Shown here piece after piece: positions 1 to 40,432 of a DNA stretch of 64,000 nucleotides (positions are counted from its first letter, which is position 1; every line of letters begins with the position of its first letter). Made by a program: the position numbers and the translations under genes. A model generated the notes under the pieces. That model had not been told where the DNA came from. It saw nothing but the letters and a program-made list of their open reading frames with translations, and searched no databases. Source of the DNA: Escherichia coli (GTDB lineage: Bacteria > Pseudomonadota > Gammaproteobacteria > Enterobacterales > Enterobacteriaceae); the NCBI RefSeq assembly GCF_051903065.1, contig NZ_CP178438.1. One strand, given 5' to 3'.

Positions 1-500
<500 letters not shown>

Positions 501-506
501 TCACAC

Positions 507-572
507 AACATACGAGCCGGACGCATAAAGTGTAAAGCCTGGGGTGCCTAATGAGTGAGCTGACTCACATTA
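507..572 (-). promoter_or_regulatory. lac promoter (-10 at 507..512, -35 at 531..536) with CAP/CRP site at 549..572
   Basis: aacata is the reverse complement of TATGTT and tgtaaa of TTTACA; taatgagtgagctgactcacatta matches the CRP site palindrome with one substitution relative to the K-12 sequence as recalled. Confidence 0.8.
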
Positions 573-584
573 ATTGCGTTGCGC

Positions 585-1667
585 TCACTGCCCGCTTTCC
601 AGTCGGGAAACTTGTCGTGCCAGCTGCATTAATGAATCGGCCAACGCGCGGGGAGAGGCGGTTTGCGTCTTGGGCGCCAGGGTGGTTTTTCTTTTCACCA
701 GAGAGACGGGCAAAAGCTGATTGCCCTTCACCGCCTGGCCCTGAGAGAGTTGCAGCAAGCGGTCCACGCTGGTTTGCCCCAGCAGGCGAAAATCCTGTTT
801 GATGGTGGTTAACGGCGGGATATAACACGAGCTGTCTTCGGTATCGTCGTATCCCACTACCGAGATATCCGCACCAACGCGCAACCCGGACTCGGTAATG
901 GCGCGCATTGCGCCCAGCGCCATCTGATCGTTGGCAACCAGCATCGCAGTGGGAACGATGCCCTCATTTAGCATTTGCATGGTTTGTTGAAAACCGGACA
1001 TGGCACTCCAGTCGCCCTCCCGTTCCGCTATCGGCTGAATTTGATTGCGAGTGAGATATTTATGCCAGCCCGCCAGACGCAGACGCGCCGAGACAGAACT
1101 TAATGGGCCCGCTAACAGCGCGATTTGCTGGTGACCCAATGCGACCAGATGCTCCACGCCCAGTCGCGTACCGTCTTCATGGGAGAAAATAATACTGTTG
1201 ATGGGAGTCTGGTCAGAGACATCAAGAAATAACGCCGGAACATTAGCGCAGGCAGCTTCCACAGTAATGGCATCCTGGTCATCCAGCGGATAGTTAATGA
1301 TCAGCCCACTGACGCGTTGCGCGAGAAGATTGTGCACCGCCGCTTTACAGGCTTCGACGCCGCTTCGTTCTACCATCGACACCACCACGCTGGCACCCAG
1401 TTGATCGGCGCGAGATTTAATCGCCGCGACAATTTGCGACGGCGCGTGCAGGGCCAGACTGGAGGTGGCAACGCCAATCAGCAACGACTGTTTGCCCGCC
1501 AGTTGTTGTGCCACGCGGTTGGGTATGTAATTCAGCTCCGCCATCGCCGCTTCCACTTTTTCCCGCGTTTTCGCAGAAACGTGGCTGGCCTGATTCACCA
1601 CGCGGGAAACGGTCTGATAAGAGACACCGGCATACTCTGCGACATCGTATAGCGTTACTGGTTTCAC
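585..1667 (-). CDS. lacI: lactose operon repressor LacI
   Basis: ORF 585..1676 translates to the LacI sequence (KPVTLYDVAEYAGVSYQTVSRVVNQ...LESGQ); the annotated GTG start is at 1667. Confidence 0.95.
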   Translation of the reverse strand: MKPVTLYDVAEYAGVSYQTVSRVVNQASHVSAKTREKVEAAMAELNYIPNRVAQQLAGKQSLLIGVATSSLALHAPSQIVAAIKSRADQLGASVVVSMVERSGVEACKAAVHNLLAQRVSGLIINYPLDDQDAITVEAACANVPALFLDVSDQTPINSIIFSHEDGTRLGVEHLVALGHQQIALLAGPLSSVSARLRLAGWHKYLTRNQIQPIAEREGDWSAMSGFQQTMQMLNEGIVPTAMLVANDQMALGAMRAITESGLRVGADISVVGYDDTEDSSCYIPPLTTIKQDFRLLGQTSVDRLLQLSQGQAVKGNQLLPVSLVKRKTTLAPKTQTASPRALADSLMQLARQVSRLESGQ

Positions 1668-1702
1668 ATTCACCACCCTGAATTGACTCTCTTCCGGGCG
1701 CT

Positions 1703-1741
1703 ATCATGCCATACCGCGAAAGGTTTTGCGCCATTCGGCGG
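1703..1741 (-). promoter_or_regulatory. lacI promoter (-10 CATGAT, -35 GCGCAA) embedded in the 3' end of the upstream AraC-family gene
   Basis: Reverse complement contains GCGCAAAACCTTTCGCGGTATGGCATGATAG, matching the K-12 lacI promoter as recalled. Confidence 0.5.
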
Positions 1742-2657
1742 GGCTGACGCCGAAGTGAGATTTAAAATGCTGACGCCAGGTCACAGGTGAGAGAAAACCC
1801 ACCTCAGCCGCTATCCGCTCAACGGGCAACTGACTGGATCCCAACAGTTCCTGGCTACGGCGTAAGCGTTCAGTAATGAGCCATTCGGCGATACTCGAAC
1901 CGGTCGCTTTCATAAAATGGCGAGTTAATGTGCGGCGACTCATCATTACTCGCTGCGCCAGCGAGTCGAGATCATGCTGTTGCGCAATGTTTTGCCGCAG
2001 GTAATCCAGCAGGAGGTTTATGCGTTCATCATGGGTATTTTTCGGCACCGGTTGCTCAATAAACTGCGCCTGACCGCCGGTGCGATATGGCGGTACGACC
2101 ATCCGTCGGGCAATATGGTTAGCATAGTCGCTGCCAAAATGTTGCCGAACAATATACAAACAGCAATCCAGCGCCGCGGCAGTACCGGCAGAGGTAATAA
2201 TGCCGTCATCGTCTACGTACAACGCGTTAATATCCAGATGTGTTTGTGAAAAACGTGCCTGAAATTCACGCTCGAACTCCCAGTGCGTGGCGGCACGCTT
2301 ATTTTTCAGTAAACCTGCATAGCCGAGCACAAACGTGCCCAGGCAAAGCCCGACAATCTGTGCGCCGTTATCCCGTGCGGTCGTTAAGGCTTCCAGCAGT
2401 TTTTGTGGCGGTTTTTGTGTAATTGTTCCCCAGTAAGGAATTATCACAATATCCGCCTGGATGACTGCGGTATAGTCATGGGTGGCGGTTACGGAAAACC
2501 CATCGGCAGAGTCCACGTTTCCCGGCTTTTCAGCGCAGATAATTACGTGAAAGTGTTTTTTCTCCGCCATTTTTTCGCTAAATACGATAAACGGTACGGA
2601 AAGGTGAAAAGGACTAAAACCGGCAACGGCGATAATGGCAACAGTTAGCGGGCGCAT
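1704..2657 (-). CDS. AraC-family transcriptional regulator with N-terminal DJ-1/PfpI (class I glutamine amidotransferase-like) domain
   Basis: 317-aa ORF; the N-terminus (VAIIAVAGFSPFHLSVPFIVF..., a conserved Cys in GLCLGTFVL) looks DJ-1/PfpI-like and the C-terminus has an AraC-type HTH (RRTLTRHF...IAAEVGF). Not present at this position in K-12 as I recall it. Confidence 0.85.
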   Translation of the reverse strand: MRPLTVAIIAVAGFSPFHLSVPFIVFSEKMAEKKHFHVIICAEKPGNVDSADGFSVTATHDYTAVIQADIVIIPYWGTITQKPPQKLLEALTTARDNGAQIVGLCLGTFVLGYAGLLKNKRAATHWEFEREFQARFSQTHLDINALYVDDDGIITSAGTAAALDCCLYIVRQHFGSDYANHIARRMVVPPYRTGGQAQFIEQPVPKNTHDERINLLLDYLRQNIAQQHDLDSLAQRVMMSRRTLTRHFMKATGSSIAEWLITERLRRSQELLGSSQLPVERIAAEVGFLSPVTWRQHFKSHFGVSPAEWRKTFRGMA

Positions 2658-2676
2658 AACACTCTTTATCTCCGAA

Positions 2677-3453
2677 TTAGAATGTCAACGTTTCACCATC
2701 TTCTGGTACGTTCACAAATTCGATAATTTGATTATCTCTGGCGTATTCCTTGAGCGCATCACGCGTCAGCAAACAGTGGTTTACGGCCTCCATATGTGTC
2801 GCGACAATTTGCGCTTCTGGCAGGGTAAAATGTGTTTTGAGAATATCTTCTGCTCCCATAATTATCGCGCCATGCCCCAGAACATGCGCAAATCCGGCAT
2901 TCAACACAACCACTTCTGGTTGGAAAGTTAGCATTGTAACCTCGACGTCGTCACGCCAGAGGGTATCGCCAGCGAGATAGAGCGTTTTCTCTGTCGGGTG
3001 CTGGAAAACAACGCCGCAGGCTGCGCCTAAACGCTTCGCCATAGCCGGGTCGGCATAGGTGCGATCGGAGCCGTGCTGCCCTGTCGTTTTATGCAGAGTA
3101 ATATCGCCAAATTTAGTCTCGTCGGTAAGTACGGTAAGATGCGTAAATCCTTGTTTATTCAGTGATTCAGCATCTTGCTCATTTTGCACATAAATCGGTT
3201 TATCTTTAGGGACGACGCGGGAGGCTGTTTCGTCCCAGTGATCTTCATGCAAATGGGTCACGATTAGGGCGTCAACGTTGAGTAACGTTGTTAAATCGCA
3301 CGGTAATTCTACCGTTGGATTGCGGATTTCTGCGCGTGCCGTTCCGGCAAAACCCGGATAACTTCCTTTAGGCGCAAGTAACGGGTCGATAAGAAATGTT
3401 TTGCCAGCGTATTGGATAATTTGGGTGGCATTACGAATTTGCGTAATTTTCAT
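2677..3453 (-). CDS. MBL-fold metallo-hydrolase (beta-lactamase superfamily)
   Basis: ORF with the HxHxDH-type motif (THLHEDHWDE); probable ATG at 3453 preceded by GGAG (the ORF track extends to 3465). Its stop is 20 bp from the AraC-family start, suggesting co-transcription. Confidence 0.8.
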   Translation of the reverse strand: MKITQIRNATQIIQYAGKTFLIDPLLAPKGSYPGFAGTARAEIRNPTVELPCDLTTLLNVDALIVTHLHEDHWDETASRVVPKDKPIYVQNEQDAESLNKQGFTHLTVLTDETKFGDITLHKTTGQHGSDRTYADPAMAKRLGAACGVVFQHPTEKTLYLAGDTLWRDDVEVTMLTFQPEVVVLNAGFAHVLGHGAIIMGAEDILKTHFTLPEAQIVATHMEAVNHCLLTRDALKEYARDNQIIEFVNVPEDGETLTF

Positions 3454-3567
3454 GATTTGCTCCACATCACAGTATTGATGTCATTAGCGTAGCGTGCAGC
3501 CCGTACTGTGCATGTGGGCAAATGGGCGAATAACGATGAGAATGGGCCAAATTACACATTGGCGTAA

Positions 3568-4401
3568 CTAGCGTAAATGCACGCCGCTTCGCCGTCCGGC
3601 CACCAGAATAGCCTGCGATTCAACCCCTTCTTCGATCTGTTTTGCTACCCGTTGTAGTGCCGGAAGATGCTTTTCCGCTGCCTGTTCGATGGTCATTGCG
3701 CTCGCCATATACACCAGGTTCAAACAGCCAATCACCCGTTGTTCACTGCGCAGCGGTACGGCGATAGAGGCGATCTTCTCCTCCTGATCCCAGCCGCGGT
3801 AGTTCTGTCCGTAACCCTCTTTGCGCGCGCGCGCCAGAATGGCTTGCAGCTTTAACGGTTCTCGTGCCAGTTGATAGTCATCACCGGGGCGGGAGGCTAA
3901 CATTTCGATTAATTCCTTGCGTTCTTGTTCCGGGCAAAAGGCCAGCCAGGTCAGGCCCGAGGCGGTTTTCAGAAGCGGCAAACGTCGCCCGACCATTGCC
4001 CGGTGAAAGGATAAGCGGCTGAAACGGTGGGTGGTTTCGCGTACCACCATTGCATCAACATCCAGCGTGGACACATCTGTCGGCCATACCACTTCGCGCA
4101 ACAGATCGCCCAGCAGTGGGGCCGCCAGTGCAGAAATCCACTGTTCGTCACGAAATCCTTCGCTTAATTGCCGCACTTTGATGGTCAGACGAAAACTATC
4201 ATCGGAGGGACTACGCCGGACATATCCCTCTTCCTGCAGCGTCTCCAGCAGTCGCCGCACAGTGGTGCGATGCAGGCCGCTGAGTTCCGCCAGCAGCCCG
4301 ACGCTGGCACCGCCGTCAAGTTTATTTAACATATTTAATAACATTAGACCGCGGGTTAAGCCGCGCACGGTTTTGTATTCCGTCTGCTCATTGTTCTGCA
4401 T
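3568..4401 (-). CDS. mhpR: IclR-family activator of the mhp operon, MhpR
   Basis: Translation from the ATG at 4401 (MQNNEQTEYKTVRGLTRG...) gives the 277-aa MhpR; divergent from mhpA. Confidence 0.93.
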   Translation of the reverse strand: MQNNEQTEYKTVRGLTRGLMLLNMLNKLDGGASVGLLAELSGLHRTTVRRLLETLQEEGYVRRSPSDDSFRLTIKVRQLSEGFRDEQWISALAAPLLGDLLREVVWPTDVSTLDVDAMVVRETTHRFSRLSFHRAMVGRRLPLLKTASGLTWLAFCPEQERKELIEMLASRPGDDYQLAREPLKLQAILARARKEGYGQNYRGWDQEEKIASIAVPLRSEQRVIGCLNLVYMASAMTIEQAAEKHLPALQRVAKQIEEGVESQAILVAGRRSGVHLR

Positions 4402-4434
4402 ATTAATTGACATTTCTATAGTTAAAACAACGTT

Positions 4435-4449
4435 GTGCACCTGGTGCAC
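4435..4449. promoter_or_regulatory. Palindrome GTGCACCTGGTGCAC in the mhpR-mhpA divergent region (candidate MhpR operator)
   Basis: 15-bp palindrome seen directly in the sequence; I recall an MhpR operator of this form but could not verify it. Confidence 0.45.
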
Positions 4450-4591
4450 ATTCGGGCATGTTTTGATTGTAGCCGAAAACACCCTTTCTATACTGAGCGC
4501 ACAATAAAAAATAATTTACATGTTTTTAACAAAATAAGTTGCGCTGTACTGTGCGCGCAACGGCATTTTGTCCGAGTCGTGAGGTACTGAA

Positions 4592-6256
4592 ATGGCAATA
4601 CAACACCCTGACATCCAGCCTGCTGTTAACCATAGCGTTCAGGTGGCGATCGCTGGTGCCGGTCCGGTCGGGCTGATGATGGCGAACTATCTCGGCCAGA
4701 TGGGCATTGACGTGCTGGTGGTGGAGAAACTCGATAAGTTGATCGACTACCCGCGTGCGATTGGTATTGATGACGAGGCGCTGCGCACCATGCAGTCGGT
4801 CGGCCTGGTCGATAATGTTCTGCCGCATACTACGCCGTGGCACGCGATGCGTTTTCTCACCCCGAAGGGCCGCTGTTTTGCTGATATTCAGCCAATGACC
4901 GATGAATTTGGCTGGCCGCGCCGTAACGCCTTTATTCAGCCGCAGGTCGATGCGGTGATGCTGGAAGGGGTGTCGCGTTTTCCGAATGTGCGCTGCTTGT
5001 TTTCCCGCGAGCTGGAGGCCTTCAGTCAGCAAGATGACGAAGTGACCTTGCACCTGAAAACGGCAGAAGGGCAGCGGGAAATAGTCAAAGCCCAGTGGCT
5101 GGTGGCCTGTGATGGTGGGGCAAGTTTTGTCCGTCGCACCCTGAATGTGCCGTTTGAAGGTAAAACTGCGCCAAATCAGTGGATTGTGGTAGATATCGCC
5201 AACGATCCGTTAAGTACGCCGCATATCTATTTGTGTTGCGATCCGGTGCGCCCGTATGTTTCTGCCGCGCTACCTCATGCGGTACGTCGCTTTGAATTTA
5301 TGGTGATGCCAGGAGAAACCGAAGAACAGCTGCGTGAGCCGCAAAATATGCGCAAGCTGTTAAGCAAAGTGCTGCCTAATCCGGACAATGTTGAATTGAT
5401 TCGCCAGCGTGTCTACACCCACAACGCGCGACTGGCGCAACGTTTCCGTATTGATCGCGTACTGCTGGCGGGCGATGCCGCGCACATCATGCCGGTATGG
5501 CAGGGGCAGGGCTATAACAGTGGTATGCGCGACGCCTTTAACCTCGCATGGAAACTGGCGTTGGTTATCCAGGGGAAAGCCCGCGATGCGCTGCTCGATA
5601 CCTATCAACAAGAACGTCGCGATCACGCCAAAGCGATGATTGACCTGTCCGTGACGGCGGGCAACGTGCTGGCTCCGCCGAAACGCTGGCAGGGTACGTT
5701 ACGTGACGGCGTTTCCTGGCTGCTGAATTATCTGCCGCCAGTAAAACGCTACTTCCTCGAAATGCGCTTCAAGCCGATGCCGCAATATTACGGCGGTGCG
5801 CTGGTGCGTGAGGGCGAGGCGAAGCACTCTCCGGTCGGCAAGATGTTTATTCAGCCGAAAGTCACGCTGGAAAACGGCGACGTGACGCTACTCGATAACG
5901 CGATTGGCGCGAACTTCGCAGTAATTGGCTGGGGATGCAATCCACTATGGGGGATGAGCGACGAGCAAATCCAGCAGTGGCGCGCGTTGGGCACACGCTT
6001 CATTCAGGTGGTGCCGGAAGTGCAAATTCATACCGCACAGGATAACCACGACGGCGTACTACGCGTGGGGGATACGCAAGGTCGCCTGCGTAGCTGGTTC
6101 GCGCAACACAATGCTTCGCTGGTGGTGATGCGCCCGGATCGCTTTGTTGCCGCCACCGCCATTCCGCAAACTCTGGGCAAGACCCTGAATAAACTGGCGT
6201 CGGTGATGACGCTGACCCGCCCTGATGCCGACGTTTCTGTCGAAAAGGTAGCCTGA
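4592..6256 (+). CDS. mhpA: 3-(3-hydroxyphenyl)propionate hydroxylase (FAD monooxygenase)
   Basis: 554-aa ORF with the FAD-binding GxGxxG motif ([18 protein letters not shown]); first gene of the mhpABCDFE order. Confidence 0.95.
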
Positions 6257-6257
6257 T

Positions 6258-7202
6258 ATGCACGCTTATCTTCATTGTCTTTCCCACTCGCCGCTGGTGG
6301 GGTATGTCGACCCGGCACAAGAGGTACTCGATGAGGTCAATGGCGTGATTGCCAGCGCCCGCGAGCGTATTGCGGCTTTCTCCCCTGAACTGGTGGTGCT
6401 GTTTGCGCCAGATCACTACAACGGCTTTTTCTATGACGTGATGCCACCGTTCTGTTTAGGCGTTGGAGCGACGGCAATTGGTGATTTCGGCAGTGCGGCA
6501 GGAGAGCTGCCCGTGCCTGTGGAGCTGGCGGAGGCCTGTGCGCATGCCGTCATGAAGAGCGGGATCGATCTTGCCGTTTCTTACTGTATGCAGGTGGACC
6601 ACGGGTTCGCACAGCCGCTGGAGTTCCTGCTCGGTGGGCTGGATAAGGTGCCAGTTCTGCCTGTGTTCATCAACGGTGTCGCCACGCCGCTGCCCGGTTT
6701 CCAGCGTACCCGCATGTTGGGTGAAGCCATTGGACGTTTCACCAGCACTCTCAATAAACGCGTGCTGTTCCTGGGTTCCGGTGGGCTTTCCCATCAGCCG
6801 CCGGTGCCCGAACTGGCGAAAGCCGATGCCCATATGCGCGACCGTCTGTTGGGGAGCGGGAAAGATTTACCCGCCAGTGAGCGCGAATTGCGTCAGCAAA
6901 GGGTGATTAGCGCCGCTGAGAAGTTTGTTGAGGATCAGAGAACTCTGCATCCGCTCAACCCGATTTGGGATAACCAGTTCATGACTTTGCTGGAGCAGGG
7001 ACGCATACAGGAACTGGATGCCGTCAGTAACGAAGAGCTTTCCGCCATTGCCGGAAAGTCGACACATGAAATCAAAACCTGGGTCGCCGCTTTTGCCGCT
7101 ATTTCTGCATTTGGCAACTGGCGTAGCGAAGGGCGTTATTACCGCCCAATCCCGGAGTGGATTGCCGGATTTGGCTCGTTAAGCGCCAGAACAGAGAACT
7201 GA
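6258..7202 (+). CDS. mhpB: 2,3-dihydroxyphenylpropionate 1,2-dioxygenase (extradiol)
   Basis: 314-aa ORF ([16 protein letters not shown]...) directly after mhpA. Confidence 0.95.
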
Positions 7203-7219
7203 ATATGCAGGAGAAGATG

Positions 7220-8086
7220 ATGAGTTATCAGCCACAAACCGAAGCCGCCACCAGCCGTTTTCTGAATGTAGAAGAAGCGGGTAAAACGCTGCGCATCCAT
7301 TTTAATGACTGCGGACAAGGCGACGAAACCGTTGTCCTGCTGCATGGTTCCGGCCCGGGTGCTACTGGCTGGGCGAACTTCAGCCGCAATATCGATCCGC
7401 TGGTAGAGGCGGGCTATCGGGTGATCCTGCTGGATTGTCCGGGTTGGGGCAAGAGCGATTCGATCGTTAATAGTGGTTCGCGATCGGATCTTAATGCACG
7501 AATCCTGAAAAGCGTGGTGGATCAACTGGATATCGCCAAAATCCACCTGCTGGGCAACTCGATGGGTGGCCATAGTTCTGTGGCGTTCACCCTTAACTGG
7601 CCGGAGCGCGTCGGCAAACTGGTGCTGATGGGCGGCGGTACGGGCGGCATGAGTTTGTTTACGCCGATGCCAACCGAAGGTATTAAGCGACTGAATCAGC
7701 TTTATCGTCAGCCGACTATCGAAAACCTGAAGCTGATGATGGATATCTTCGTTTTTGATACCAGCGATTTGACCGACGCCCTGTTTGAAGCGCGCCTGAA
7801 TAATATGCTGTCGCGCCGCGATCACCTGGAAAATTTCGTTAAGAGCCTGGAAACTAATCCGAAACAGTTCCCGGATTTTGGCCCACGTCTGGCGGAAATC
7901 AAAGCGCAAACCCTGATTGTCTGGGGGCGCAACGACCGCTTTGTGCCGATGGATGCGGGTCTGCGTCTGCTGTCCGGCATTGCCGGTTCTGAACTGCATA
8001 TCTTCCGCGACTGTGGTCACTGGGCGCAGTGGGAACATGCCGACGCTTTCAATCAACTGGTGCTGAATTTCCTCGCACGTGCTTAA
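7220..8086 (+). CDS. mhpC: 2-hydroxy-6-ketonona-2,4-dienedioate hydrolase (alpha/beta hydrolase)
   Basis: ORF with the GNSMGG nucleophile motif; the start is placed at the MSYQPQ ATG (7220), with alternative in-frame ATGs at 7205 and 7217. Confidence 0.9.
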
Positions 8087-15629: not shown

Positions 15630-16676
15630 TTATGCCGCATCCGCTAAAACAAACATCCCGTAAGGATGGATTTCGAGGTAATAGTGCTCACCAATATCGG
15701 GCTGTAAACGGGTGGCGTTTACTTGTAATAAAATCTCCTGTCCATGCCACTCTACGGTCACTTCGTACTGCGGCCCCATGTAGGCGACATGGCGAATAAC
15801 ACAACGCTGACTCTCTTCGCCGTGATTGCTTAAGGTGATGGCTTCCGGGCGAACGCCGACGGTGCCGCTACCTTGCGCCGGGAAATGCGCCGCGCGCGGC
15901 AGGCGATAACCGTAGATATCGACATACTCTTCGCTAAAGTTCGCCGGGAACAGGTTGGCGTCGCCCATAAAACTTGCCATAAATCGGGAGGCTGGCTGAC
16001 GATAGAGATCCTGCGGTGAGCCAATCTGCATGATGTGACCTTTATTCATCACCAACACAGTGTCGGACACCGCGAAAGCTTCACTTTGATCGTGAGTGAC
16101 GTAGAGCGACGTGATATTAAACTGCTTTTGCAGCTCGCGGATCTTATCGCGCATACTGCGGCGCAGGTTGGCATCGAGGTTACTTAACGGCTCATCAAAC
16201 AGCAGCACCTTTGGCTTGAGGATCAACGCGCGGGCCAGTGCCACACGCTGTTGCTGACCACCGGAAATCTGATCGACATAGCGGTCCTCGAAGCCTTCCA
16301 GATCCACCATTGCCAGCGCCTCCTTCACCCGCTGTTTCACTTCGCTACGCGAGACGCCAAGCATCTTCAGCCCGTAGCCAACGTTTTCACCCAGCGACAT
16401 ATGCGGGAACAGAGCGTATGACTGAAACACCATGCAGATATCGCGCTGTTGAATGGAACGATGCGTGACATCTTCGCCATCAATAAAAATTTGCCCTTCG
16501 CTCGGTTTTTCCAGCCCGGCAACCAGACGCAAAATGGTGGTTTTGCCACAGCCGGAAGGACCGAGCAGCGTCACCATTTGCCCTTGTGGAATGGTGAGAT
16601 TGATATTGTCGATAACCGTATTACTGCCGAATCGTTTAGTGACGTTGCGCAGTTCAACAAAATTTTTCTGACTCAT
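15630..16676 (-). CDS. ABC transporter ATP-binding protein (AfuC/FbpC-like)
   Basis: Walker [10 protein letters not shown], signature [15 protein letters not shown], Walker B LLFDEP; start placed at the MSQKNF ATG (16676) preceded by GGAG, with an alternative ATG at 16688 overlapping the upstream stop. Confidence 0.85.
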
Positions 16677-16687
16677 AGTGCGCTCCA

Positions 16688-18766
16688 TTACGCCTGGTTT
16701 TTGGCTTTAGAACGGGAGATACGAGCTTCTCCGATCAGCCAGTCAAAGAGGAAAATAATCGCCAGCATCACCACGATCAGAATCGAACCATAGGCGATGG
16801 CTACGCCATATTCGCCGTCTTCAACGCGGTTAAGAATGTAGGCGGTTGCCACGCGGGTGTCCGGCGTGACGAGAAAGACGATGGCGCTGACCGTCGTGAT
16901 GGCCCGCACAAAGCTGTAGATCAGGGCCGAGAGAATGGCCGGACGCAGCAGTGGCAGTAAAATGTGGGTTATGGTTCGCAAGGAACCTGCGCGCAGGCTG
17001 AGTGAGGCTTCATCCAGCGATTTGTCGATCTGCCCCAGGCCTGCAATCCCGGCGCGAATACCCACCGGAACGTTACGCATCACCATCGAGATAATCACAA
17101 TTGCCGCCGTTCCGGTGAGATAAACCGGAGCGCTGTTAAAGGCAAGAATATACGAAACGCCCGCCACCGTACCCGGTACGGCAAAGCACAGCATGGTGGT
17201 GAACTCGATGGTCTTTTTGCCTTTGAATTGTTGACGCACCACCACCCAGGCGATGAGCAGGCCAAAGATAGCGGTAATGGGAGCGGCAATCCCGGCGTAG
17301 AGCAGGGTATCCAGCAGTGAAGGCCACGCGCCGTCGCTCATTCCCTGACCAAATAGCTTGATAAAGTTATCCAGCGTCAGGGTGTAGTCCACGCCCCAGT
17401 TCACCGTGAAGCTGCCGTAGAAAATGCTGCCGTAGAGCAGGGCGTTAAAGGCAATCCATATCGCAAGTATGGCGACCACGCTCCACACCAGGGTGACCGG
17501 TAGCGGCTGGACGTCGCCACGGTAGGATTTGCCGGAAACCGTGACGTAAGAGCGTTTACCAATCCACATATACTGGATGCAGAACACCAGCAGCGAGAAC
17601 AGCAGCAGGAAAGCGCCAAGGGTGCTGGCGGCCTGATAATCCAGCTGCGAGCCGGTAATATAGAAGTAAATTTGCGTCGCCAGTACGTCGAAGTTACCGC
17701 CAAGTACCAGCGGGTTACTGAAATCAGCCAGTGACTGTACCACGACGATTAAAAAGGCATTGGCGAGTGCGGGCTTCAACAACGGCACAAACACGCCGTT
17801 AAAGGTTTGCCAGCGGCTGGCGCGCAGGGTGTAGGAGGCCTCTTCCAGCGAGGGATGAATGGTTTTAATGGCCCCGTCGAGGATCATAAATGCCATTGGC
17901 GTGAATGCCAGAACCTGTGCCAGCCAGATCCCGGTAAAACCGTACAGCCAGTTGGTGTTGGTCAGCCCAAACCACTCCACCATAAATTCCGTAACATAGC
18001 CGGAGCGCCCCATCATGAGCGTCACGCCTAAGCCGACCACAAACGGTGGCGTAACGATGGGCAAAATGGAAAAGATGCGACCAATAATGGCGCTGCGTTT
18101 AGCGATGCGCGTGGTATAAATCGCCAGCACCAGGCCGAAGAAAGTACAGCCTATCCCCACCGCTATCGACAAGACGATAGAGTTGACGATCACCTGAACA
18201 ATATGTGCCTGCGAGAGCACGGTCATAAACGCCAGCGGGGCGAACTCTCCCGCGTCGTTGGTGAACATCGGGATAAAAATGGCGATGCTCGGCCAGACGA
18301 TAAAAATGCCAATCAGCGCCACAATCGCAATCAGTGAGCCGATCACGAAGCGGTCGCCACCCAGCCATTCGAGGCGGGTTAAGGCCAGCGTCATAATCGC
18401 GCCTAGTTCGACAAACAGCACGATGGCGGCGTAGCCTAAACCGCGTCCAACCACGGTGGCGCTGATGACGATAAACGCCATACAGAGCAATGCCCAGCCG
18501 GCATCGAAATAATGACGGCTACGTTGTTCGCGCGTGGCCTCACTAAACGGGCGGACCAGCAACAGGCTCGGGAGTAAATACCACAGCCAGCTGATATTAA
18601 AATGCGACCAGCCATAAGCCTCGAGGATCTCATCACTCGTGGACTCCAGCAGGCCATAATCGAGGCTCCAGCTCGGCAACAGTATAAATGCCAGCCAGCC
18701 CAGCAAAACCCAAAGGAAAATCGCATCCCGCTTTTTCACGGGATGGAGTGCAAGTGTCTGTGACAT
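16688..18766 (-). CDS. ABC transporter permease, two fused transmembrane domains (AfuB/FbpB-like)
   Basis: About 692-aa highly hydrophobic ORF; probable ATG at 18766 ([12 protein letters not shown]); the ORF track extends to a TTG at 18817. Confidence 0.82.
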
Positions 18767-18834
18767 AGTAGTTCCGGTATGGTTGGCCGGGGCAGGCGTT
18801 TGTGCTGCACCCGGCAAATACGCCTAATGCGGGT

Positions 18835-19866
18835 TTATTTACCCATCTTCACTTCGCTGACCCATTTATTAATCAATGCCTTACGAACATCCGTGGAACC
18901 ATATTTATCCATGTCGTAGTTGATTAATTTCAGGTCGTCGAGCTTCAGCGAATTTGGCGACGTTTCGGCGGTGGTATTGGTCAGGATCTGATAAGACTTC
19001 CCTTTCTTCCACGCCAGTTCCTGAGCTTCTTTTGATAATACCCAGTCCACAAACAGTTTGGCGTTGTCGAGGTTGCGCGCGCCTTTCAGAATGCTGACGC
19101 CGCCAATTTCGTAGCCCGTACCTTCACACGGGGAAATCAACTCCAGCGGCGCGCCCTGTTCTTTTTCCAGCGAGTAGTCATGCAGGAAGCCAATACCAAT
19201 CGCCGTTTCGCCACGGGCGGCGTTACGTGCCGGGGCTATGCCTGATTTGGTGTACTGAGAGACGTTGGCGTTCAGTTGTTTTAGATAATCAAAGGCCTGA
19301 TCTTCCCCCCACAGCTGCGCAAAAGTAGCCAGGGCGGTGTAGGCAGTACCGGAACTTTGCGGATCGGCAATTTGAATTTCGCCTTTATATTCCGGTTTGG
19401 TGAGATCTTTCCAGCACTTCGGCACCGGCAGGTTTTTCTCTTTCAGACGATCGGTGTTTACGCCAAAACCGAGGATCCCCACATAAACGGCAGAGGACAG
19501 ATTCCCTTTCACTTTTGCCGGATCGCGGAATTTCTCCATGATCTGCTCAAGGGTAGGGGATTTATACGCCTGTAGCAGGCCCATCTCGCCAGCCTGCGAT
19601 TGCGGGTCTAAAGTGCCGCCGTACCAGACGTCAGCCTGGGGGTTTTTCTTTTCAGCATCGACTTTTGCCAGGGTGCTTCCGGAACCGTTGCGGATAAACG
19701 AGGTTTTTACATCATATTTCTCGCCAAACGCTTTGGTTTCGGCCTCACACATTTCATTGGTGGCGCTGCAATAGACCACCAGCCGGCCTTTTGCCTGCGC
19801 GGCACCCGTTAAAGTCGCCAGCGCAACGGCAGAAGCAATCAGAGTAGAGGTAAAGGTCATTTTCAT
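18835..19866 (-). CDS. periplasmic substrate-binding protein (AfuA/FbpA-like, likely sugar-phosphate binding)
   Basis: Starts MKMTFTSTLIASAVALATLTGAAQA (signal peptide); the ATG at 19866 overlaps the stop of the upstream MFS gene (ATGA). The longer track ORF to 20193 is a frame artefact. Confidence 0.85.
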   Translation of the reverse strand: MKMTFTSTLIASAVALATLTGAAQAKGRLVVYCSATNEMCEAETKAFGEKYDVKTSFIRNGSGSTLAKVDAEKKNPQADVWYGGTLDPQSQAGEMGLLQAYKSPTLEQIMEKFRDPAKVKGNLSSAVYVGILGFGVNTDRLKEKNLPVPKCWKDLTKPEYKGEIQIADPQSSGTAYTALATFAQLWGEDQAFDYLKQLNANVSQYTKSGIAPARNAARGETAIGIGFLHDYSLEKEQGAPLELISPCEGTGYEIGGVSILKGARNLDNAKLFVDWVLSKEAQELAWKKGKSYQILTNTTAETSPNSLKLDDLKLINYDMDKYGSTDVRKALINKWVSEVKMGK

Positions 19867-21179
19867 TGTTTTATCCTTCGAGCGTGAGTGGTGGTGATGC
19901 CCGCCATCAGTAACGGCATCAGCAGTAAACCCATAAGTACTGCGGCGACCGAGAGTAAACTGAACATTCCCGGCCAGCCGTAGCGTTCGATGACCAGCGA
20001 CAGCGGCCAGCCTGCCAGCGCCGCGCCAAGGTAAGCGAACAGGCCGAGAAATCCGGTGATTGAACCCGCCGCAGCTTTGTGCCCACACTCCACCGCCGCA
20101 AGTCCAATCAGCATTTGTGGGCCAAAGACGAAAAAGCCCACGGTAAAAAAGCACACTGCCAGCAGAGCGTAGTGATGAACCGGTGCCAGCCACAGTGCGG
20201 CGACTGACACCATCAACCCCAACGTGAACAGCAAAATCATTGGCGCTCGTTGCCCGCTAAACAGCAAATCCGATCCCCATCCGGCAAATAACGCGCCGAG
20301 TAAGCCGCCCACTTCAAACAGCATTACCGTGGCGTTGGCGCTGAGCAGGTTGACACCGTGGCTTTCCGTCAGCCAGATATTGCCCCAGTCGTTAAGCGCA
20401 ATCCGGATCACATAAACCAGTACATAAGAGACGCCCAGTAGCCAGATCAGCGGATTTTGCAGCATGGTGGTGCGCAACATTTGCCACAGCCCCATCGGCG
20501 GACTTTGTTGTTCCTGACGTAACTCCAGCGGATCGTGACGCCAGTGACCAACTGTCGGTAATCCCTCTTCCTGGGGCGTGCCTTTGAGTTGTAGCGTTAA
20601 CCAGATCCCTAATGCCATGCTGATTATCCCCGGTGTCAGCATCGCGGCCTGCCAGCCCCACCAGTGGGCGGCAAAGGCGCTAATCAGCGGAATAATCGCT
20701 CCGCCAATGTTGATCGACATATTCCAGCAGCCCCACCAGAAACCGCGCTCATTGCGTGAGTACCAGTGGGTCAGCAAGCGGGCACACGGTGGCCATCCCC
20801 AGCCCTGAAAAAAACCGTTCAGTGTCCAGACCACAAGCAGAAGCGTAAGTGATTCGCCAAAGGCAAACACCACGTTCAATAACCCGGTGGCGAACAAGCC
20901 GACGCCCATAAAACCGCGTTGTCCGTGGCTGTCATGCCACAGTCCGGCGGTAAATTTCGACAATCCGTAGCTGAGATAAAACAGCGAACCCAGCAGGCCA
21001 ATGTCGCCTTTATCCAGTCCGAGGTCGGTTTGTAGCGCCGGAAGGACGTAATTCACGCTTTTTCGCGTCAGATAAAATGCGGCGTAGCCAATAATCATGC
21101 ACATCAGCAATCGCGGACGTAATGCCCGGTAGCATTGATTAATTTCTCTCGCTGAACGCGCGTGCATGGTTGTCTCCAT
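19863..21179 (-). CDS. UhpC-like MFS sugar-phosphate sensor/transporter (organophosphate:phosphate antiporter family)
   Basis: 438-aa ORF with 12-TM MFS character and clear similarity to UhpC as recalled (GYAAFYLTRKS, FQGWGWPPCARLLTHWYSRNERG); an alternative ATG lies 4 codons downstream. Confidence 0.82.
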   Translation of the reverse strand: METTMHARSAREINQCYRALRPRLLMCMIIGYAAFYLTRKSVNYVLPALQTDLGLDKGDIGLLGSLFYLSYGLSKFTAGLWHDSHGQRGFMGVGLFATGLLNVVFAFGESLTLLLVVWTLNGFFQGWGWPPCARLLTHWYSRNERGFWWGCWNMSINIGGAIIPLISAFAAHWWGWQAAMLTPGIISMALGIWLTLQLKGTPQEEGLPTVGHWRHDPLELRQEQQSPPMGLWQMLRTTMLQNPLIWLLGVSYVLVYVIRIALNDWGNIWLTESHGVNLLSANATVMLFEVGGLLGALFAGWGSDLLFSGQRAPMILLFTLGLMVSVAALWLAPVHHYALLAVCFFTVGFFVFGPQMLIGLAAVECGHKAAAGSITGFLGLFAYLGAALAGWPLSLVIERYGWPGMFSLLSVAAVLMGLLLMPLLMAGITTTHARRIKQ

Positions 21180-21251
21180 GTTGCTGACTATATGAAAATG
21201 AAAGTGAAAGGGGATGAGAGAAAATCCGGGATACCTAAGACTTTTTCCTGG

Positions 21252-22793
21252 TTATCCGGCGATTTGTTGCAAAAATGTGGGCAAGTTAACAATTACCCGC
21301 GTGCCGTGCTGTTTTTCGAGCGTTAAGTCGCCGCCCAGGGCGCTGACGCGCTCACGCATCCCCTGAATGCCAAATCCGGCCATTTTCCCGCTGGCGATCC
21401 CCACACCGTTGTCGCTGACCTCCAGATGCAATACCTCTCCCTGCTGGCGCAGGATAATCGTCACTTCGCTGGCTTCGGCGTGTTTACAGACGTTATTGAG
21501 CAACTCCTGCAATAACCGATACAAGGTAAAGCGCACCGTTTCGTTTTCTGGTGTGGAGTTCAGTTGATAGGCAAACTGGCAATGAATGCCGCGTTCACCA
21601 AAGGCAAATTCATTAATCAGATGCAACAACGCTTCGCGAAATGTCAGTTCATCAAGCGCGGGAGGCCGCAACTGGCGCAGCAATTGGCGGGTGGAGAGAT
21701 GAATGCGGCGGGCGAGCTCATTGATTTGGCTGGCTGCGGATTGAATTTGCGCCGGATCACGCGCCCGCTTCACCAGTTGCGACTGGATCTGAATGGCGGT
21801 GATGTTCTGACCGATTTCGTCGTGCAGCTCTCGCGCCAGGTTTTTTCGCGTGTCCTCCTCGGTGTGGATCAACTTTTCCGCCAATGCCCGCCGCGCTGCC
21901 AGCTCGGCCTCCAGCCGTTGTCGGTAATGGTGCAGGTTTAGCGCCAGATGTTGCTGGCGACTGATGGCAATGCCCAGGCCAATTCCCAGCAAGGCCTGGG
22001 TCGCGAGGAAAATCTCCAGCTCCACCAGGTTACTAAAGCCCACGCCAATCTGGCGGGCGATGGTGATCATCATGCTGCCCAAAAGCCCGGAGAGTACGCC
22101 ACCTTGCCAGCCAAATTTCCACGCCATCACCACATTGGGCAAAAAGACCACGATCAACAGCAGACGCTCAATTTCAGGTGACAGCACCATCTGAGTGCCG
22201 ATACCAATGATAAAAAACAGGCTACACCAGATGATTAAAGAGGTACGCAAGGGGGGATTATGCGTATCGAGTCCCAGGAGCTGGTAGCGATGCTGCTGGC
22301 GCAGAAACTCAAAGATAAGATAGACAAACGGCGTCAGTAATACGCCGCCGGTAAATGAGGTCAAACCCGGCAGCATTATTGGGCCTGACATAAAAGGGGA
22401 GAGCAGGGCGGTATTCAACAATGAAGCTGCCGTGACAGTGGCTAACAGCAACGTCAGACGCTGCCAGTAAAGTGGAAAACGGTGCCAGAAGTTTTGCGCA
22501 AGGAGGACAGGAAACAGGCTAATAACCGGCGTTGCCAGCATGAGATAACCGTTCAATAGCTGCTCACTATGGAGCCAGAACATCATCAGCAAAGGGGGGA
22601 GTACCAACGCAGGCCAGTAGCGGCGAGAGAGCAAAATAACAAGGGCGAGATAAACTCCCTGCGGGAGAAACAACACCGCCTGTTGACCGTTATTGGTCAG
22701 ATAAAAGCTGAGCGTCCACAGCATCAGCCAGCCGGTTCCCCAGGCCAACACAATAAACAGCGAAATCACCCAATGACGAAGATTGCGCGACAT
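21252..22793 (-). CDS. UhpB-like sensor histidine kinase (MASE1 membrane domain plus HisKA_3/HATPase)
   Basis: 513-aa ORF; the C-terminus has an H-box (RELHDEIGQNITAI) and ATPase motifs (DNGVGI, GFGIQGMRERV), similar to UhpB as recalled. Confidence 0.85.
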   Translation of the reverse strand: MSRNLRHWVISLFIVLAWGTGWLMLWTLSFYLTNNGQQAVLFLPQGVYLALVILLSRRYWPALVLPPLLMMFWLHSEQLLNGYLMLATPVISLFPVLLAQNFWHRFPLYWQRLTLLLATVTAASLLNTALLSPFMSGPIMLPGLTSFTGGVLLTPFVYLIFEFLRQQHRYQLLGLDTHNPPLRTSLIIWCSLFFIIGIGTQMVLSPEIERLLLIVVFLPNVVMAWKFGWQGGVLSGLLGSMMITIARQIGVGFSNLVELEIFLATQALLGIGLGIAISRQQHLALNLHHYRQRLEAELAARRALAEKLIHTEEDTRKNLARELHDEIGQNITAIQIQSQLVKRARDPAQIQSAASQINELARRIHLSTRQLLRQLRPPALDELTFREALLHLINEFAFGERGIHCQFAYQLNSTPENETVRFTLYRLLQELLNNVCKHAEASEVTIILRQQGEVLHLEVSDNGVGIASGKMAGFGIQGMRERVSALGGDLTLEKQHGTRVIVNLPTFLQQIAG

Positions 22794-23422
22794 TAATGCC
22801 CCGCCAGCAGATGGTGGTCGAGCGCAAAATGTACCAGTTCAATGGTGCTATGGCAGTTCAGTTTTCCCAGCACATTGGCGCGATGCACATGTACCGTTTT
22901 ATGACTGAGTTCGAGTTTAAAGGCGATCTCTTTAACGCTGTCTCCTTTGACCAGTAAATCAAACACTTCACGTTCTCGTGGGGTGAGAATTTCCAGCGCC
23001 TGGGCGGGTTGCCCGCCGCCGCGTAAAGCCCGAATCGCATCGGCACAGAGATAATGCCCGCCCAGCCCGACCGAGCGCACCGCCTGTACTAACTCTTCCG
23101 GCCCACAGCGTTTGGTTAAATACCCGCTGGCACCGGCATCCAGCGCGCTTTGCACAAAGGTTGGCGCGTCATAAATGCTAAGAATAATGGCGCGAAATTG
23201 CGGTTTTTGTGCACGCAGGCGCTTAAGCAAACTGAGGCCGTTTTCGTCCGGCATGGCAATATCAATGACGGCAACATTGACGTCATCACGGATTAATGCC
23301 GACCATGCCTGCGCGGCACTACTGTACTGACCAATGACCTCCAGATCGTCTTCCAGAGAGAGTAATTGTGCGAAGCCAGAGCGCACCACCACATGGTCAT
23401 CCACCAGCACTACCCGAATCAT
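22793..23422 (-). CDS. UhpA-like response regulator (NarL/LuxR family)
   Basis: 209-aa ORF (MIRVVLVDDHVVVRSGFAQLL...) with a C-terminal LuxR HTH (LTPREREVFDLLVKGDSVKEIAFKLELSHKTVHVHRANVLGKL); 1-nt TAATG overlap with the kinase gene. Confidence 0.88.
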   Translation of the reverse strand: MIRVVLVDDHVVVRSGFAQLLSLEDDLEVIGQYSSAAQAWSALIRDDVNVAVIDIAMPDENGLSLLKRLRAQKPQFRAIILSIYDAPTFVQSALDAGASGYLTKRCGPEELVQAVRSVGLGGHYLCADAIRALRGGGQPAQALEILTPREREVFDLLVKGDSVKEIAFKLELSHKTVHVHRANVLGKLNCHSTIELVHFALDHHLLAGH

Positions 23423-38193: not shown

Positions 38194-38655
38194 CTTAAAA
38201 ACCTATCCCGTCTAACACAAAGTGCATACATTACCACGACAAAACGGGGGATTCGCGGCCTTCTGAAAGATTGTTGCAATCTTCTGCTGACAAAGCGTGC
38301 AACGTACTGGTGAAGAAAGTGCGTTATCTCAAAGATGTGCGCAAGATCACAAAAATGATGAACGGGAAGCTAATTTATTCCTGGCTTAAATGGCCATGCG
38401 GTGAGTTTTTTTCTCTTAATTATAAGTTAACGAAGAGAATATATTTCATAACTTTTATTTATAATAAAGGTTGATAATTAAAAGCCTATATTTTGTGTGG
38501 ATAATTATTTAAATAAGAGAAACGTTTCGCTGGTAATCAAACAAAAAATATTTGCGCAAAGTATTTCCTTTGTCATAAAAATAATACTTCCAGACACTAT
38601 GAAGTTGTGAAACATAATGTTAACTTCTCCATACTTTGGATAAGGAAATACAGAC

Positions 38656-38916
38656 ATGAAAAATCTCATTGCTGAGTTGTTATTTAAGCTTGCCCAAAAA
38701 GAAGAAGAGTCGAAAGAACTGTGTGCGCAGGTAGAAGCTTTGGAGATTATCGTCACTGCAATGCTTCGCAATATGGCGCAAAATGACCAACAACGGTTGA
38801 TTGATCAGGTAGAGGGGGCGCTGTACGAGGTAAAGCCCGATGCCAGCATTCCTGACGACGATACGGAGCTGCTGCGCGATTACGTAAAGAAGTTATTGAA
38901 GCATCCTCGTCAGTAA
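38656..38916 (+). CDS. iraP: anti-adapter protein IraP (stabilises RpoS)
   Basis: 86-aa ORF ([40 protein letters not shown]...). Confidence 0.93.
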
Positions 38917-38936
38917 AAAGTTAATCTTTTCAACAG

Positions 38937-38954
38937 CTGTCATAAAGTTGTCAC
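38937..38954 (+). promoter_or_regulatory. Pho box of the phoA promoter (PhoB binding site), with -10 TATAGT at 38965..38970
   Basis: ctgtcataaagttgtcac: two CTGTCAT-like 7-bp direct repeats with 4-bp spacing, upstream of the phoA start. Confidence 0.85.
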
Positions 38955-39016
38955 GGCCGAGACTTATAGTCGCTTTGTTTTTATTTTTTAATGTATTTGT
39001 ACATGGAGAAAATAAA

Positions 39017-40432
39017 GTGAAACAAAGCACTATTGCACTGGCACTCTTACCGTTACTGTTTACCCCTGTGACAAAAGCCCGGACACCAGAAATGCCTGTT
39101 CTGGAAAACCGGGCTGCTCAGGGCGATATTACTGCACCCGGCGGTGCTCGCCGCTTAACGGCTGATCAGACCGCCGCTCTGCGTGATTCTCTTAGCGATA
39201 AACCTGCAAAAAATATTATTTTGCTGATTGGTGATGGGATGGGGGACTCGGAAATTACTGCCGCACGCAATTATGCCGAAGGTGCGGGCGGCTTTTTTAA
39301 AGGTATCGATGCCTTACCGCTTACCGGGCAATACACTCACTATGCGCTGAATAAAAAAACCGGCAAACCGGACTACGTCACCGACTCGGCTGCATCAGCA
39401 ACCGCCTGGTCAACCGGTGTCAAAACCTATAACGGCGCGCTGGGCGTCGATATTCACGAAAAAGATCACCCAACGATTCTGGAAATGGCAAAAGCCGCAG
39501 GTCTGGCGACCGGTAACGTTTCTACCGCAGAGTTGCAGGATGCCACGCCCGCTGCGCTGGTGGCGCATGTGACCTCGCGCAAATGCTACGGTCCGGGCGC
39601 GACCAGTGAAAAATGTCCGGGTAACGCTCTGGAAAAAGGCGGAAAAGGATCGATTACCGAACAGTTACTTAACGCTCGTGCCGACGTTACGCTTGGCGGT
39701 GGCGCAAAAACCTTTGCTGAAACGGCAACCGCAGGTGAATGGCAGGGAAAAACGCTGCGTGAACAGGCACAGGCGCGTGGTTATCAGTTGGTGAGCGATG
39801 CTGCCTCACTGAATTCGGTGACGGAAGCGAATCAGCAAAAACCCCTGCTTGGCCTGTTTGCTGACGGCAATATGCCAGTGCGCTGGCTAGGACCGAAAGC
39901 AACGTATCACGGTAATATTGATAAGCCCGCAGTCACCTGTACGCCTAATCCGCAACGTAATGACAGTGTACCGACCCTGGCACAGATGACCGACAAAGCC
40001 ATTGAATTGTTGAGTAAAAATGAGAAAGGCTTTTTCCTGCAAGTTGAAGGTGCGTCAATCGATAAACAGGATCATGCTGCGAATCCTTGTGGGCAAATTG
40101 GCGAGACGGTCGATCTCGATGAAGCCGTACAACGGGCGCTGGAATTCGCCAAAAAGGATGGTAACACGTTGGTCATAGTCACCGCTGATCACGCCCACGC
40201 CAGCCAGATTGTTGCGCCGGATACCAAAGCTCCGGGCCTCACCCAGGCGCTAAATACCAAAGATGGCGCAGTGATGGTGATGAGTTACGGGAACTCCGAA
40301 GAGGATTCACAAGAACATACCGGCAGTCAGTTGCGTATTGCGGCGTATGGCCCGCATGCCGCCAATGTCGTTGGACTGACCGACCAGACCGATCTCTTCT
40401 ACACCATGAAAGCCGCTCTGGGGCTGAAATAA
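39017..40432 (+). CDS. phoA: alkaline phosphatase
   Basis: GTG start at 39017 ([21 protein letters not shown] signal peptide); 471-aa precursor; active-site DSAAS present. Confidence 0.95.

Follow-up and report, generated by a model that had tools for sequence, protein, structure and literature searches.

In a 64,000-nucleotide (nt) stretch of Escherichia coli DNA (contig NZ_CP178438.1 of RefSeq assembly GCF_051903065.1; this whole stretch is referred to as the window), two genes are located between lacI and mhpR that encode a metallo-beta-lactamase (MBL)-fold hydrolase and a regulator with DJ-1- and AraC-type domains. The pair is O-island 19 (OI-19), an already described locus with a named regulator, OvrA. 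From our point of view, OI-19 is probably an ancestral two-gene operon between mhpR and lacI, in which the gene of a SaxA-family hydrolase is followed by that of the DJ-1/AraC regulator. To this known locus, the present analysis adds the assignment of the hydrolase (z0443) to the SaxA family, a conserved candidate operator, and an ancestral state with at least two deletions. As such, it offers a tidy origin for a textbook promoter, namely that of lacI, and a testable native role for a virulence regulator of enterohaemorrhagic E. coli (EHEC), and does not represent a new kind of system.

Identity of the gene pair

The window starts inside lacZ, which is followed on the minus strand by lacI, ovrA, the MBL-fold gene and mhpR, with mhpA next on the plus strand (Table 1). 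The initial annotation of this DNA, which had been made from the sequence alone, had placed two minus-strand genes between lacI and mhpR, and these are present as claimed, with 19 nt between them and 36 nt between the ovrA stop codon (1704-1706) and the GTG start codon of lacI (1667). Its calls of an AraC/DJ-1 regulator and an MBL-fold protein also agree with the domain analysis (DJ-1_PfpI and HTH_18 for the regulator, Lactamase_B_2 for the hydrolase). The end coordinate given for the hydrolase gene had to be corrected, since position 3465 corresponds to an upstream GTG of the longest open reading frame (ORF) and the RefSeq start is the ATG at 3453, which is preceded by a GGAG Shine-Dalgarno sequence.

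In a megablast search against all complete E. coli genomes, positions 1400-3800 were 100% identical to the chromosome (4.8 Mb) of a non-O157 isolate from meat, ECNB21-M121, and the match to O157:H7 genomes was 99.1%. RefSeq labels the regulator at this position as "OI-19-encoded virulence regulator OvrA" and its neighbour as "MBL fold metallo-hydrolase". The proteins are 99.4% (OvrA) and 98.8% (hydrolase) identical to those of O157:H7, and the flanking genes are the same. The O-island 19 of strain EDL933 comprises 1,834 bp with the genes z0442 (ovrA) and z0443 (reviewed in PMC8565820 and PMC10877973), which agrees with the approximately 1,830 nt that are missing from K-12. The pair hence equals OI-19 of O157:H7 EDL933 in its genes, its chromosomal position and its size, and we regard this identification as certain.

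It has been reported that OvrA activates LEE1/ler of the locus of enterocyte effacement (LEE) in EHEC (Liu et al., J Infect Dis 2020; reviewed in PMC8565820 and PMC10877973). Within the LEE1 promoter, GACATTTAATGATAATG was described as its binding site, and the protein was reported to activate ler and to promote adherence and colonisation. The deletion of z0443, which is listed as a gene of unknown function, was without effect on virulence (PMC8565820, PMC10877973). The z0443 mRNA of EDL933 depends approximately 10-fold on RpoS, with a substantial signal in stationary phase. The earlier statement that the target and effector of the pair are unknown is thus outdated, as OvrA, the regulator, has been published as an activator of LEE1/ler and the hydrolase is a SaxA-family protein. 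While the reviews treat OI-19 as O157-specific DNA with a z0443 of unknown function, the locus appears both ancestral and SaxA-like in the present analysis.

Ancestral state and loss of OI-19 in E. coli

The two genes had been regarded as inserted between lacI and mhpR, a view that we do not share. It is very likely that the pair is ancestral to the lac-mhp region of Escherichia and Citrobacter and that K-12 carries a deletion, because the pair is syntenic in Citrobacter, has diverged about as much as its flanks, is under purifying selection, and is devoid of boundary repeats and mobility genes. The Citrobacter comparison was derived from a search in which each bacterial species was represented by a single genome; no other Escherichia with the regulator was found in it. 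In 14 Citrobacter genomes, lacI-lacZ comes after MBL-ovrA (in Citrobacter sp. R56, lacZ alone), and in the eight whose sequence extends that far, mhpR or mhpA-mhpR is located upstream of MBL-ovrA. Identities to the E. coli proteins are 75-80% for OvrA, 77-81% for the MBL-fold protein, 80-83% for LacI and 90-92% for MhpR. Citrobacter sedlakii is the sole Citrobacter species with a tight ovrA-lacI junction, in which 40 nt separate the ovrA stop from the lacI start and the sequence ...TTTCGCGGTATGGCATGATAGCGC... is found as in E. coli.

For both genes, the ratio of nonsynonymous to synonymous divergence (dN/dS) is approximately 0.08-0.18, within E. coli as well as in comparison to C. sedlakii (ovrA ~0.08; hydrolase 0.10-0.18 within E. 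coli). The OI-19 copies of E. coli differ from each other by no more than 2.2%, and their dS does not exceed that of the flanking lacI and mhpR genes. At the OI-19 borders, no direct or inverted repeats, integrase, mobility genes or tRNA anchor were found.

Among the 5,426 complete E. coli genomes included in the junction survey, the intact pair is found in 435, mainly of O157:H7, O55:H7 and O145:H28, and it is always chromosomal and single-copy (97.8-100% identity). A K-12-type junction, in which the end of mhpR adjoins the final 34 nt of ovrA, was counted in 4,458 genomes. A further 487 genomes, such as BH100, ATCC 25922 and ATCC 11775, show a yaiL-type junction, in which 99 nt of the ovrA 3' end are kept and everything else, from the remainder of ovrA through the MBL gene and the entire mhp operon up to yaiL, is missing; E2348/69 (O127:H6) was placed in this class by a GlxA-family remnant that is annotated beside its lacI. 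The remaining 46 genomes belong to none of these three classes. As had been stated in the initial annotation, K-12 has neither gene and only a short spacer (76 nt in J53, with no genes within). According to the alignment, K-12 is identical to the present DNA from position 1737 downstream, which comprises the last 10 sense codons of ovrA and its stop codon. Very likely, most E. coli including K-12 have hence lost the pair by a deletion of about 1.83 kb, which begins directly behind the final codon of mhpR and stops 34 nt short of the ovrA end, and a second lineage has lost it via the larger deletion that kept 99 nt of ovrA. Judged from these alignments, the "island" has been deleted at least twice in E. 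coli.

The proposal to map the deletion endpoints by alignment with K-12 could be followed in part. The retained 34 nt of ovrA were placed, and the exact breakpoints cannot be assigned to the base because the K-12 junction contains about 10 nt (TGACACCAT) without an exact match on either parental side. This mismatch speaks against the simplest form of our interpretation, and the deletion may not have been a clean one-step event. A scenario of microhomology or of an in-frame fusion at the K-12 junction was considered and dropped as an over-interpretation.

Strain VREC0864 (L086, 1540-1600) reads TAATGCCGC at the same site, which is closer to the ovrA sequence and differs from K-12 (L002) by five transitions within 11 nt of the junction. 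The K-12-type junction is thus unusually variable, and one old deletion or several are both possible. Two further strains showed peculiarities at the locus. In E. coli GF4-3 (L090, from guinea fowl), OI-19 is kept and the sequence diverges about 12 nt past the ovrA stop, with lacI not being the next gene, which represents a further rearrangement class at the ovrA-lacI junction. In RMDEC465 (L084), the dS from the present DNA is about 0.2 in lacI and mhpR vs 0.07-0.085 in both island genes, a pattern that may reflect a mosaic generated by recombination at this locus; the lacZ of this strain is annotated as frameshifted.

Origin of the lacI promoter and transcription into lacI

The classical lacI promoter of K-12 is weak and represents the site of the lacIq up-mutation. 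From established knowledge of this promoter, we take the hexamers CATGAT and GCGCAA to be its -10 and -35 elements. As had been proposed in the initial annotation, both fall into the 3' end of ovrA, with the -35 element in codons 309-311 and the -10 element over the stop codon. The sequence from 1737 to the lacI start is identical in intact, K-12-type and yaiL-type genomes, with the -10 hexamer unchanged in K-12, BH100 and O157, and the promoter identity begins at -41. The present promoter and that of K-12 share the sequence, the 17-nt spacer and the distance to the lacI start; in K-12, these bases are part of a non-coding spacer, whereas in this strain they are located in live coding sequence, with the -10 element on the ovrA stop.

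The further claim that the K-12 promoter was left over from the 3' end of ovrA also withstood the comparison, given the positional identity of 34 nt in the ovrA frame, the C. sedlakii junction, and the second deletion that keeps 99 nt. That the classical lacI promoter is a fossil of ovrA coding sequence is, as far as alignments can tell, well supported, because the 3' end of ovrA with the -35 and -10 elements was left intact by either deletion. C. sedlakii has kept CATGAT on the ovrA stop and has GCGAAA at the -35 position. The fact that both deletions stopped short of the promoter, together with the CATGAT on the stop codon of C. sedlakii, would fit a selection for lacI expression. An origin as ovrA fossil would account for the weakness and the odd placement of the textbook promoter, and no paper tracing the K-12 lacI promoter to the ovrA 3' end was found in the searched literature. 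In the Citrobacter freundii complex (L004, L006, L010; ~6950-7740), an ORF of about 207-231 amino acids (aa), which resembles a class I methyltransferase as judged from its translation alone, separates ovrA from lacI and is encoded on the opposite strand. In these genomes, OvrA has another C-terminus than in E. coli and C. sedlakii, and the promoter sequence embedded there differs accordingly.

Neither a pattern scan for a hairpin followed by a T-run nor RNA folding (z-score 0.26) identified a terminator between ovrA and lacI. Because none is present in these 36 nt, read-through is structurally possible, and transcripts of the saxA-ovrA operon would run into lacI and add to the output of the weak embedded promoter. 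Whether such read-through reaches a measurable level is, judged from the sequence, an evenly balanced question. If it does, a joint transcription of lacI and the operon preceding it may take place in about 8% of the E. coli genomes.

The hydrolase is a predicted member of the SaxA family

The hydrolase matches the Pfam family Lactamase_B_2. In a sequence search of the PDB, entry 6BRM, "metal-dependent isothiocyanate hydrolase SaxA", was retrieved with E-values of 5e-87 (phmmer) and 1e-101 (BLASTP), with 54% identity over the full length (residues 1-258; 258 vs 259 aa). In an alignment of 66 homologs that included 6BRM, the metal ligands H67, H69, D71 and H72 (HxHxDH), H127, D163 and H220 showed no variation. 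According to the authors of the SaxA work, the enzyme converts isothiocyanates to an amine and carbonyl sulfide, the family is widespread in Enterobacterales with five clusters, the catalytic properties are preserved in all of these, and two functional members are only 44.9% identical. Because 54% identity lies well within this functional range, z0443 can be filed with high confidence as a SaxA-family member. A link of z0443 or OI-19 to SaxA was not found in the searched literature.

It is rather likely, though predicted from homology, that the E. coli protein has isothiocyanate hydrolase activity. In this case, z0443 would hydrolyse isothiocyanates (R-N=C=S + H2O -> R-NH2 + COS) that derive from glucosinolates of the diet or forage. 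The SaxA of Pectobacterium (6BRM; van den Bosch et al. 2018; described as a virulence factor in PMC7036374) resembles z0443 in its length, the HxHxDH motif and the other metal ligands. It differs in being plasmid-borne and in belonging to a plant pathogen, whereas z0443 is found in an enteric host and is chromosomal, apparently vertically inherited and of predicted activity.

The regulator OvrA and its potential effector

The Pfam domains of OvrA are DJ-1_PfpI at the N-terminus (residues 6-171; 1e-12) and, at the C-terminus, the double AraC-type helix-turn-helix HTH_18 (residues 233-311; 3e-19). The best NCBIfam match was FtrA, and an assignment as FtrA equivalog was rejected since the score of 320 bits is below the cutoff of 425. 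OvrA has in common with the GlxA/FtrA-type AraC regulators (FtrA, GbdR, CdhR) that a DJ-1/PfpI or class-I amidotransferase-like domain is combined with an AraC-type helix-turn-helix. Its subfamily is, however, distinct from FtrA and set apart by the linkage to saxA-like genes and by the operator TGGCCCRAT-N21-GGCCAC that is described below. In 81 homologs, Cys105, which occupies the nucleophile elbow of the DJ-1 domain, His125 and Cys165-166 are about 99% conserved, and the closest solved DJ-1 domains are those of isonitrile hydratases.

The effector of OvrA would be an isothiocyanate or a related electrophile, possibly sensed via Cys105 of the DJ-1-like domain; we put forward an isothiocyanate as effector only tentatively, and a covalent sensing of electrophiles is an attractive but unproven idea. 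The published activation of LEE1 by OvrA in EHEC would then be a later co-option. Regarding OI-19 as an ancestral enterobacterial module leads to a testable native signal for OvrA, and is also of interest with regard to the allyl-isothiocyanate food preservatives and brassica feeds that are used against O157:H7. One could go further and speculate that OvrA is a Cys105 thiol sensor of isothiocyanates and that a plant-derived signal would induce SaxA-like detoxification, the LEE in EHEC, and LacI via read-through. We consider this combined scenario improbable; if true, OI-19 lineages would couple a dietary signal of plant origin to both virulence and the lac switch.

In Pseudomonas syringae and P. 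viridiflava, the sax set (saxA, saxB, saxC and efflux; Fan et al. 2011, via PMC12903958) likewise consists of a hydrolase with a dedicated regulator. The P. syringae set includes saxB and efflux pumps, while the E. coli locus is without either.

Gene linkage and a candidate operator

The genetic linkage of regulator and hydrolase extends over Gamma-, Beta- and Desulfuromonadota-type Proteobacteria and is also found on plasmids. For the species comparison, the 80 best regulator homologs were used, each of which was taken from a different species. A SaxA homolog is linked to the regulator in 66 of the 80 loci, either immediately upstream on the same strand (39 loci, from Citrobacter, Kluyvera, Erwinia, Aeromonas, Vibrio, Geomonas and others) or divergently transcribed (27 loci, from Betaproteobacteria, Marinobacter and Halomonas). 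The remaining 14 loci have no SaxA homolog as neighbour; among five of them that were listed, four have a divergent neighbour that resembles isochorismatases, as confirmed by Pfam for L046 and judged from the translation for the others. The isochorismatase family is presumably also that of SaxB. Many SaxA homologs of the divergent architecture (L038, L055, L060, L068 and similar; ~5750-5900) carry an N-terminal hydrophobic extension that resembles a signal peptide, e.g. MLIKTFAG...AFA, and, unlike the enteric proteins, they may thus be exported.

The regions upstream of the hydrolase gene cannot be aligned between E. coli, Citrobacter, Kluyvera and Erwinia save for one conserved block of about 40 nt. 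In 34 of the 39 co-directional loci, the pattern TGGCCCRAT-N21-GGCCAC is located at -92 to -106 relative to the ATG of the hydrolase. The pattern also adjoins the regulator gene in other architectures, and a variant ending in GGTCAAT is visible in all 13 divergent intergenic regions that were displayed. The E. coli copy has one mismatch to the pattern and contains GCCCA three times, two of these 20 nt apart, a spacing similar to that of AraC-type direct-repeat sites. Taken together, the conservation marks this block as a candidate for the native OvrA operator, an assignment that we consider reasonably likely, and OvrA would bind at 3514-3549 to control the saxA-ovrA operon. The linkage of the pair and the conserved operator are likewise points that were not found in the searched literature.

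A scan of 3454-3567 for consensus sigma-70 promoters gave none. The sequence CTACGCT upstream of the hydrolase gene was read by eye as a possible RpoS-type -10 element and is not counted as a feature. At four loci with an isochorismatase-like gene (L046, L053, L061 and L083, from Pseudomonas, Rhodocyclales, Dechloromonas and Burkholderiaceae; ~5250-6000), TGGCCCGAT...GGCCAC is found between this gene and that of the regulator. By its sequence, this putative operator suggests a wider regulon of OvrA-type regulators.

Plasmid-borne relatives

In a tblastn search against plasmids, the hydrolase gave matches on 128 Escherichia plasmids, many of which carry a SaxA homolog that is 63% identical to the chromosomal one. 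Gene neighbours were inspected on two plasmids. On an IncY plasmid, a regulator with 58% identity to OvrA starts 15 nt after a hydrolase with 63% identity to z0443, and the same two-gene layout is found on an Enterobacter plasmid. The two-gene module is hence also mobile, and, as can be read from these identities, OI-19 on the chromosome does not stem from these plasmids. A plasmid-borne module with these identities is located at L092 (3501-5282). The 372-kb plasmid NZ_CP083586.1 (hydrolase at 243175-243948), which is among the matches, appears to belong to ECNB21-M121, as suggested by its accession number and the source "meat", and two SaxA-family genes are therefore possible in this strain.

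Alternative explanations

One could argue that OI-19 was acquired horizontally in the O157:H7 lineage and was inserted into an existing short lacI-mhpR spacer, just upstream of the lacI promoter. The restriction of the pair to 435 genomes that mainly belong to O157:H7, O55:H7 and O145:H28 would be in line with this idea, as would the mobility of related hydrolase-regulator modules on plasmids and the G+C content of the hydrolase gene, which with 47.7% is below the 56% of lacI and mhpR (ovrA 51.5%, entire window 51.8%). An insertion is, however, difficult to reconcile with a K-12 spacer that continues the ovrA frame over 10 codons to the same stop, with an independent deletion class that keeps 99 nt of the gene, and with Citrobacter, where synteny is complete, the divergence is like that of lacI and lacZ, and the exact junction is found in C. 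sedlakii. The borders lack target-site duplications, inverted repeats, an integrase and a tRNA, the divergence between the E. coli copies is core-like with a dN/dS of about 0.1, and the plasmid copies are only 58-63% identical and hence not the source, which makes an insertion highly improbable. A further alternative is that, in OI-19 strains, the embedded promoter is the sole source of lacI transcripts, with Rho, RNA decay or a silent operon rendering upstream transcription irrelevant; the gene order would then be of no consequence for regulation. The lacI hexamers are identical to those of K-12, O157:H7 is generally known to be normally lactose-inducible, and the ovrA end is translated, so that a Rho-dependent stop past the stop codon would be compatible with the sequence. 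The missing hairpin-plus-T-run, the lack of an unusually stable structure in and around the 36-nt gap, and the substantial z0443 signal in stationary phase speak for transcripts arriving from upstream, and transcription from the embedded promoter alone appears to us somewhat doubtful, yet well conceivable.

With respect to function, it can be imagined that the enteric hydrolase has the SaxA-family fold and acts on another substrate, such as a different electrophile, a lactone or an ester, and that OvrA is mainly a regulator of virulence or stress, in which case the pair would be unrelated to isothiocyanates in E. coli. Neither E. coli nor Citrobacter is a plant pathogen, the RpoS dependence of z0443 would fit a general stress gene, OvrA is documented at LEE1, and at the 14 loci that have no saxA, the regulator homologs are paired with an isochorismatase-family gene (as seen in four of the five listed). 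On the other hand, the protein is 54% identical from end to end to a proven isothiocyanate hydrolase with every metal ligand conserved, and gut E. coli of herbivores and humans are generally known to meet breakdown products of glucosinolates. Activity was moreover reported to be preserved in all five SaxA clusters, including members from non-plant pathogens. Another substrate thus seems unlikely to us, and we favour the isothiocyanate hydrolase.

Several observations nevertheless weigh against the interpretation of OI-19 as a SaxA-OvrA detoxification operon. The SaxA authors themselves allow for purposes of the family beyond plant isothiocyanates, including in bacteria that are not associated with plants, and in the searched literature, neither enzyme assays nor binding or transcript data were found for the two proteins of E. 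coli. Cys105 of OvrA is equally conserved in homologs without an adjacent saxA and is therefore not a specific pointer to isothiocyanate sensing, and the literature did not confirm that SaxC of P. syringae is the same type of regulator. The only published OvrA site, GACATTTAATGATAATG, is AT-rich and unlike the GC-rich conserved operator. Upstream of OI-19, the 17-bp LEE1 motif is absent; elsewhere in the window, it has one chance-level match with three mismatches at 69-85. Because the LEE1 site is unlike the operator and absent near OI-19, either the assignment of the native operator or the specificity of the LEE1 site is uncertain.

Layout of the locus and other features of the window

The coordinates of the individual features are compiled in Table 1. 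A scan of positions 1-5000 against Rfam retrieved no RNA families.

Table 1. Positions of genes and regulatory elements at the lacI-mhpR junction of the window.
Feature	Position	Strand	Remarks
lacI coding sequence	585-1667	minus	GTG start at 1667; same arrangement in ORF listing and RefSeq; 99.7% aa identity to O157 LacI
ovrA (z0442)	1704-2657	minus	317 aa; 99.4% identical to O157:H7 OvrA; DJ-1_PfpI and HTH_18
MBL-fold gene (z0443 homolog, predicted SaxA family)	2677-3453	minus	258 aa; 54% identity to 6BRM; Lactamase_B_2
lacI promoter, -10 element CATGAT	1703-1708	minus	overlaps the TGA stop of ovrA (1704-1706)
lacI promoter, -35 element GCGCAA	1726-1731	minus	within ovrA codons 309-311; 17-nt spacer to -10
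ovrA part kept in K-12-type genomes	1704-1737	minus	10 last sense codons, stop and 1 nt; from alignments
ovrA part kept in the second deletion class	1704-1802	minus	99 nt; GlxA-family pseudogene in RefSeq
Candidate OvrA-type operator TGGCCCATTCTCATCGTTATTCGCCCATTTGCCCAC	3514-3549	minus	~96 nt upstream of the hydrolase ATG; predicted by conservation
mhpR-hydrolase intergenic region, presumed operon promoter	3454-3567	minus	114 nt to the mhpR stop codon
mhpR	3568-4401	minus	stop codon TAG here as in OI-19 strains; TGA in K-12; TAA in VREC0864

Two further regions of the window are worth mentioning. At ~15630-23420 (mapped from NZ_CP083585.1 3650581-3658373), genes for a response regulator, a MASE1 sensor kinase, a UhpC-like receptor and an ABC transporter (fbpC) are located between tauA and frmR, and this cluster replaces the genes that are found beside frmR in BH100 (yaiO and others). 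Possibly, this cluster equals O-island 20. At ~38570-39550 (mapped from NZ_CP083585.1 3634456-3635436), the transposase gene of an IS5-like element, ISKpn26, lies between iraP and ddlA, beside a truncated hypothetical gene.

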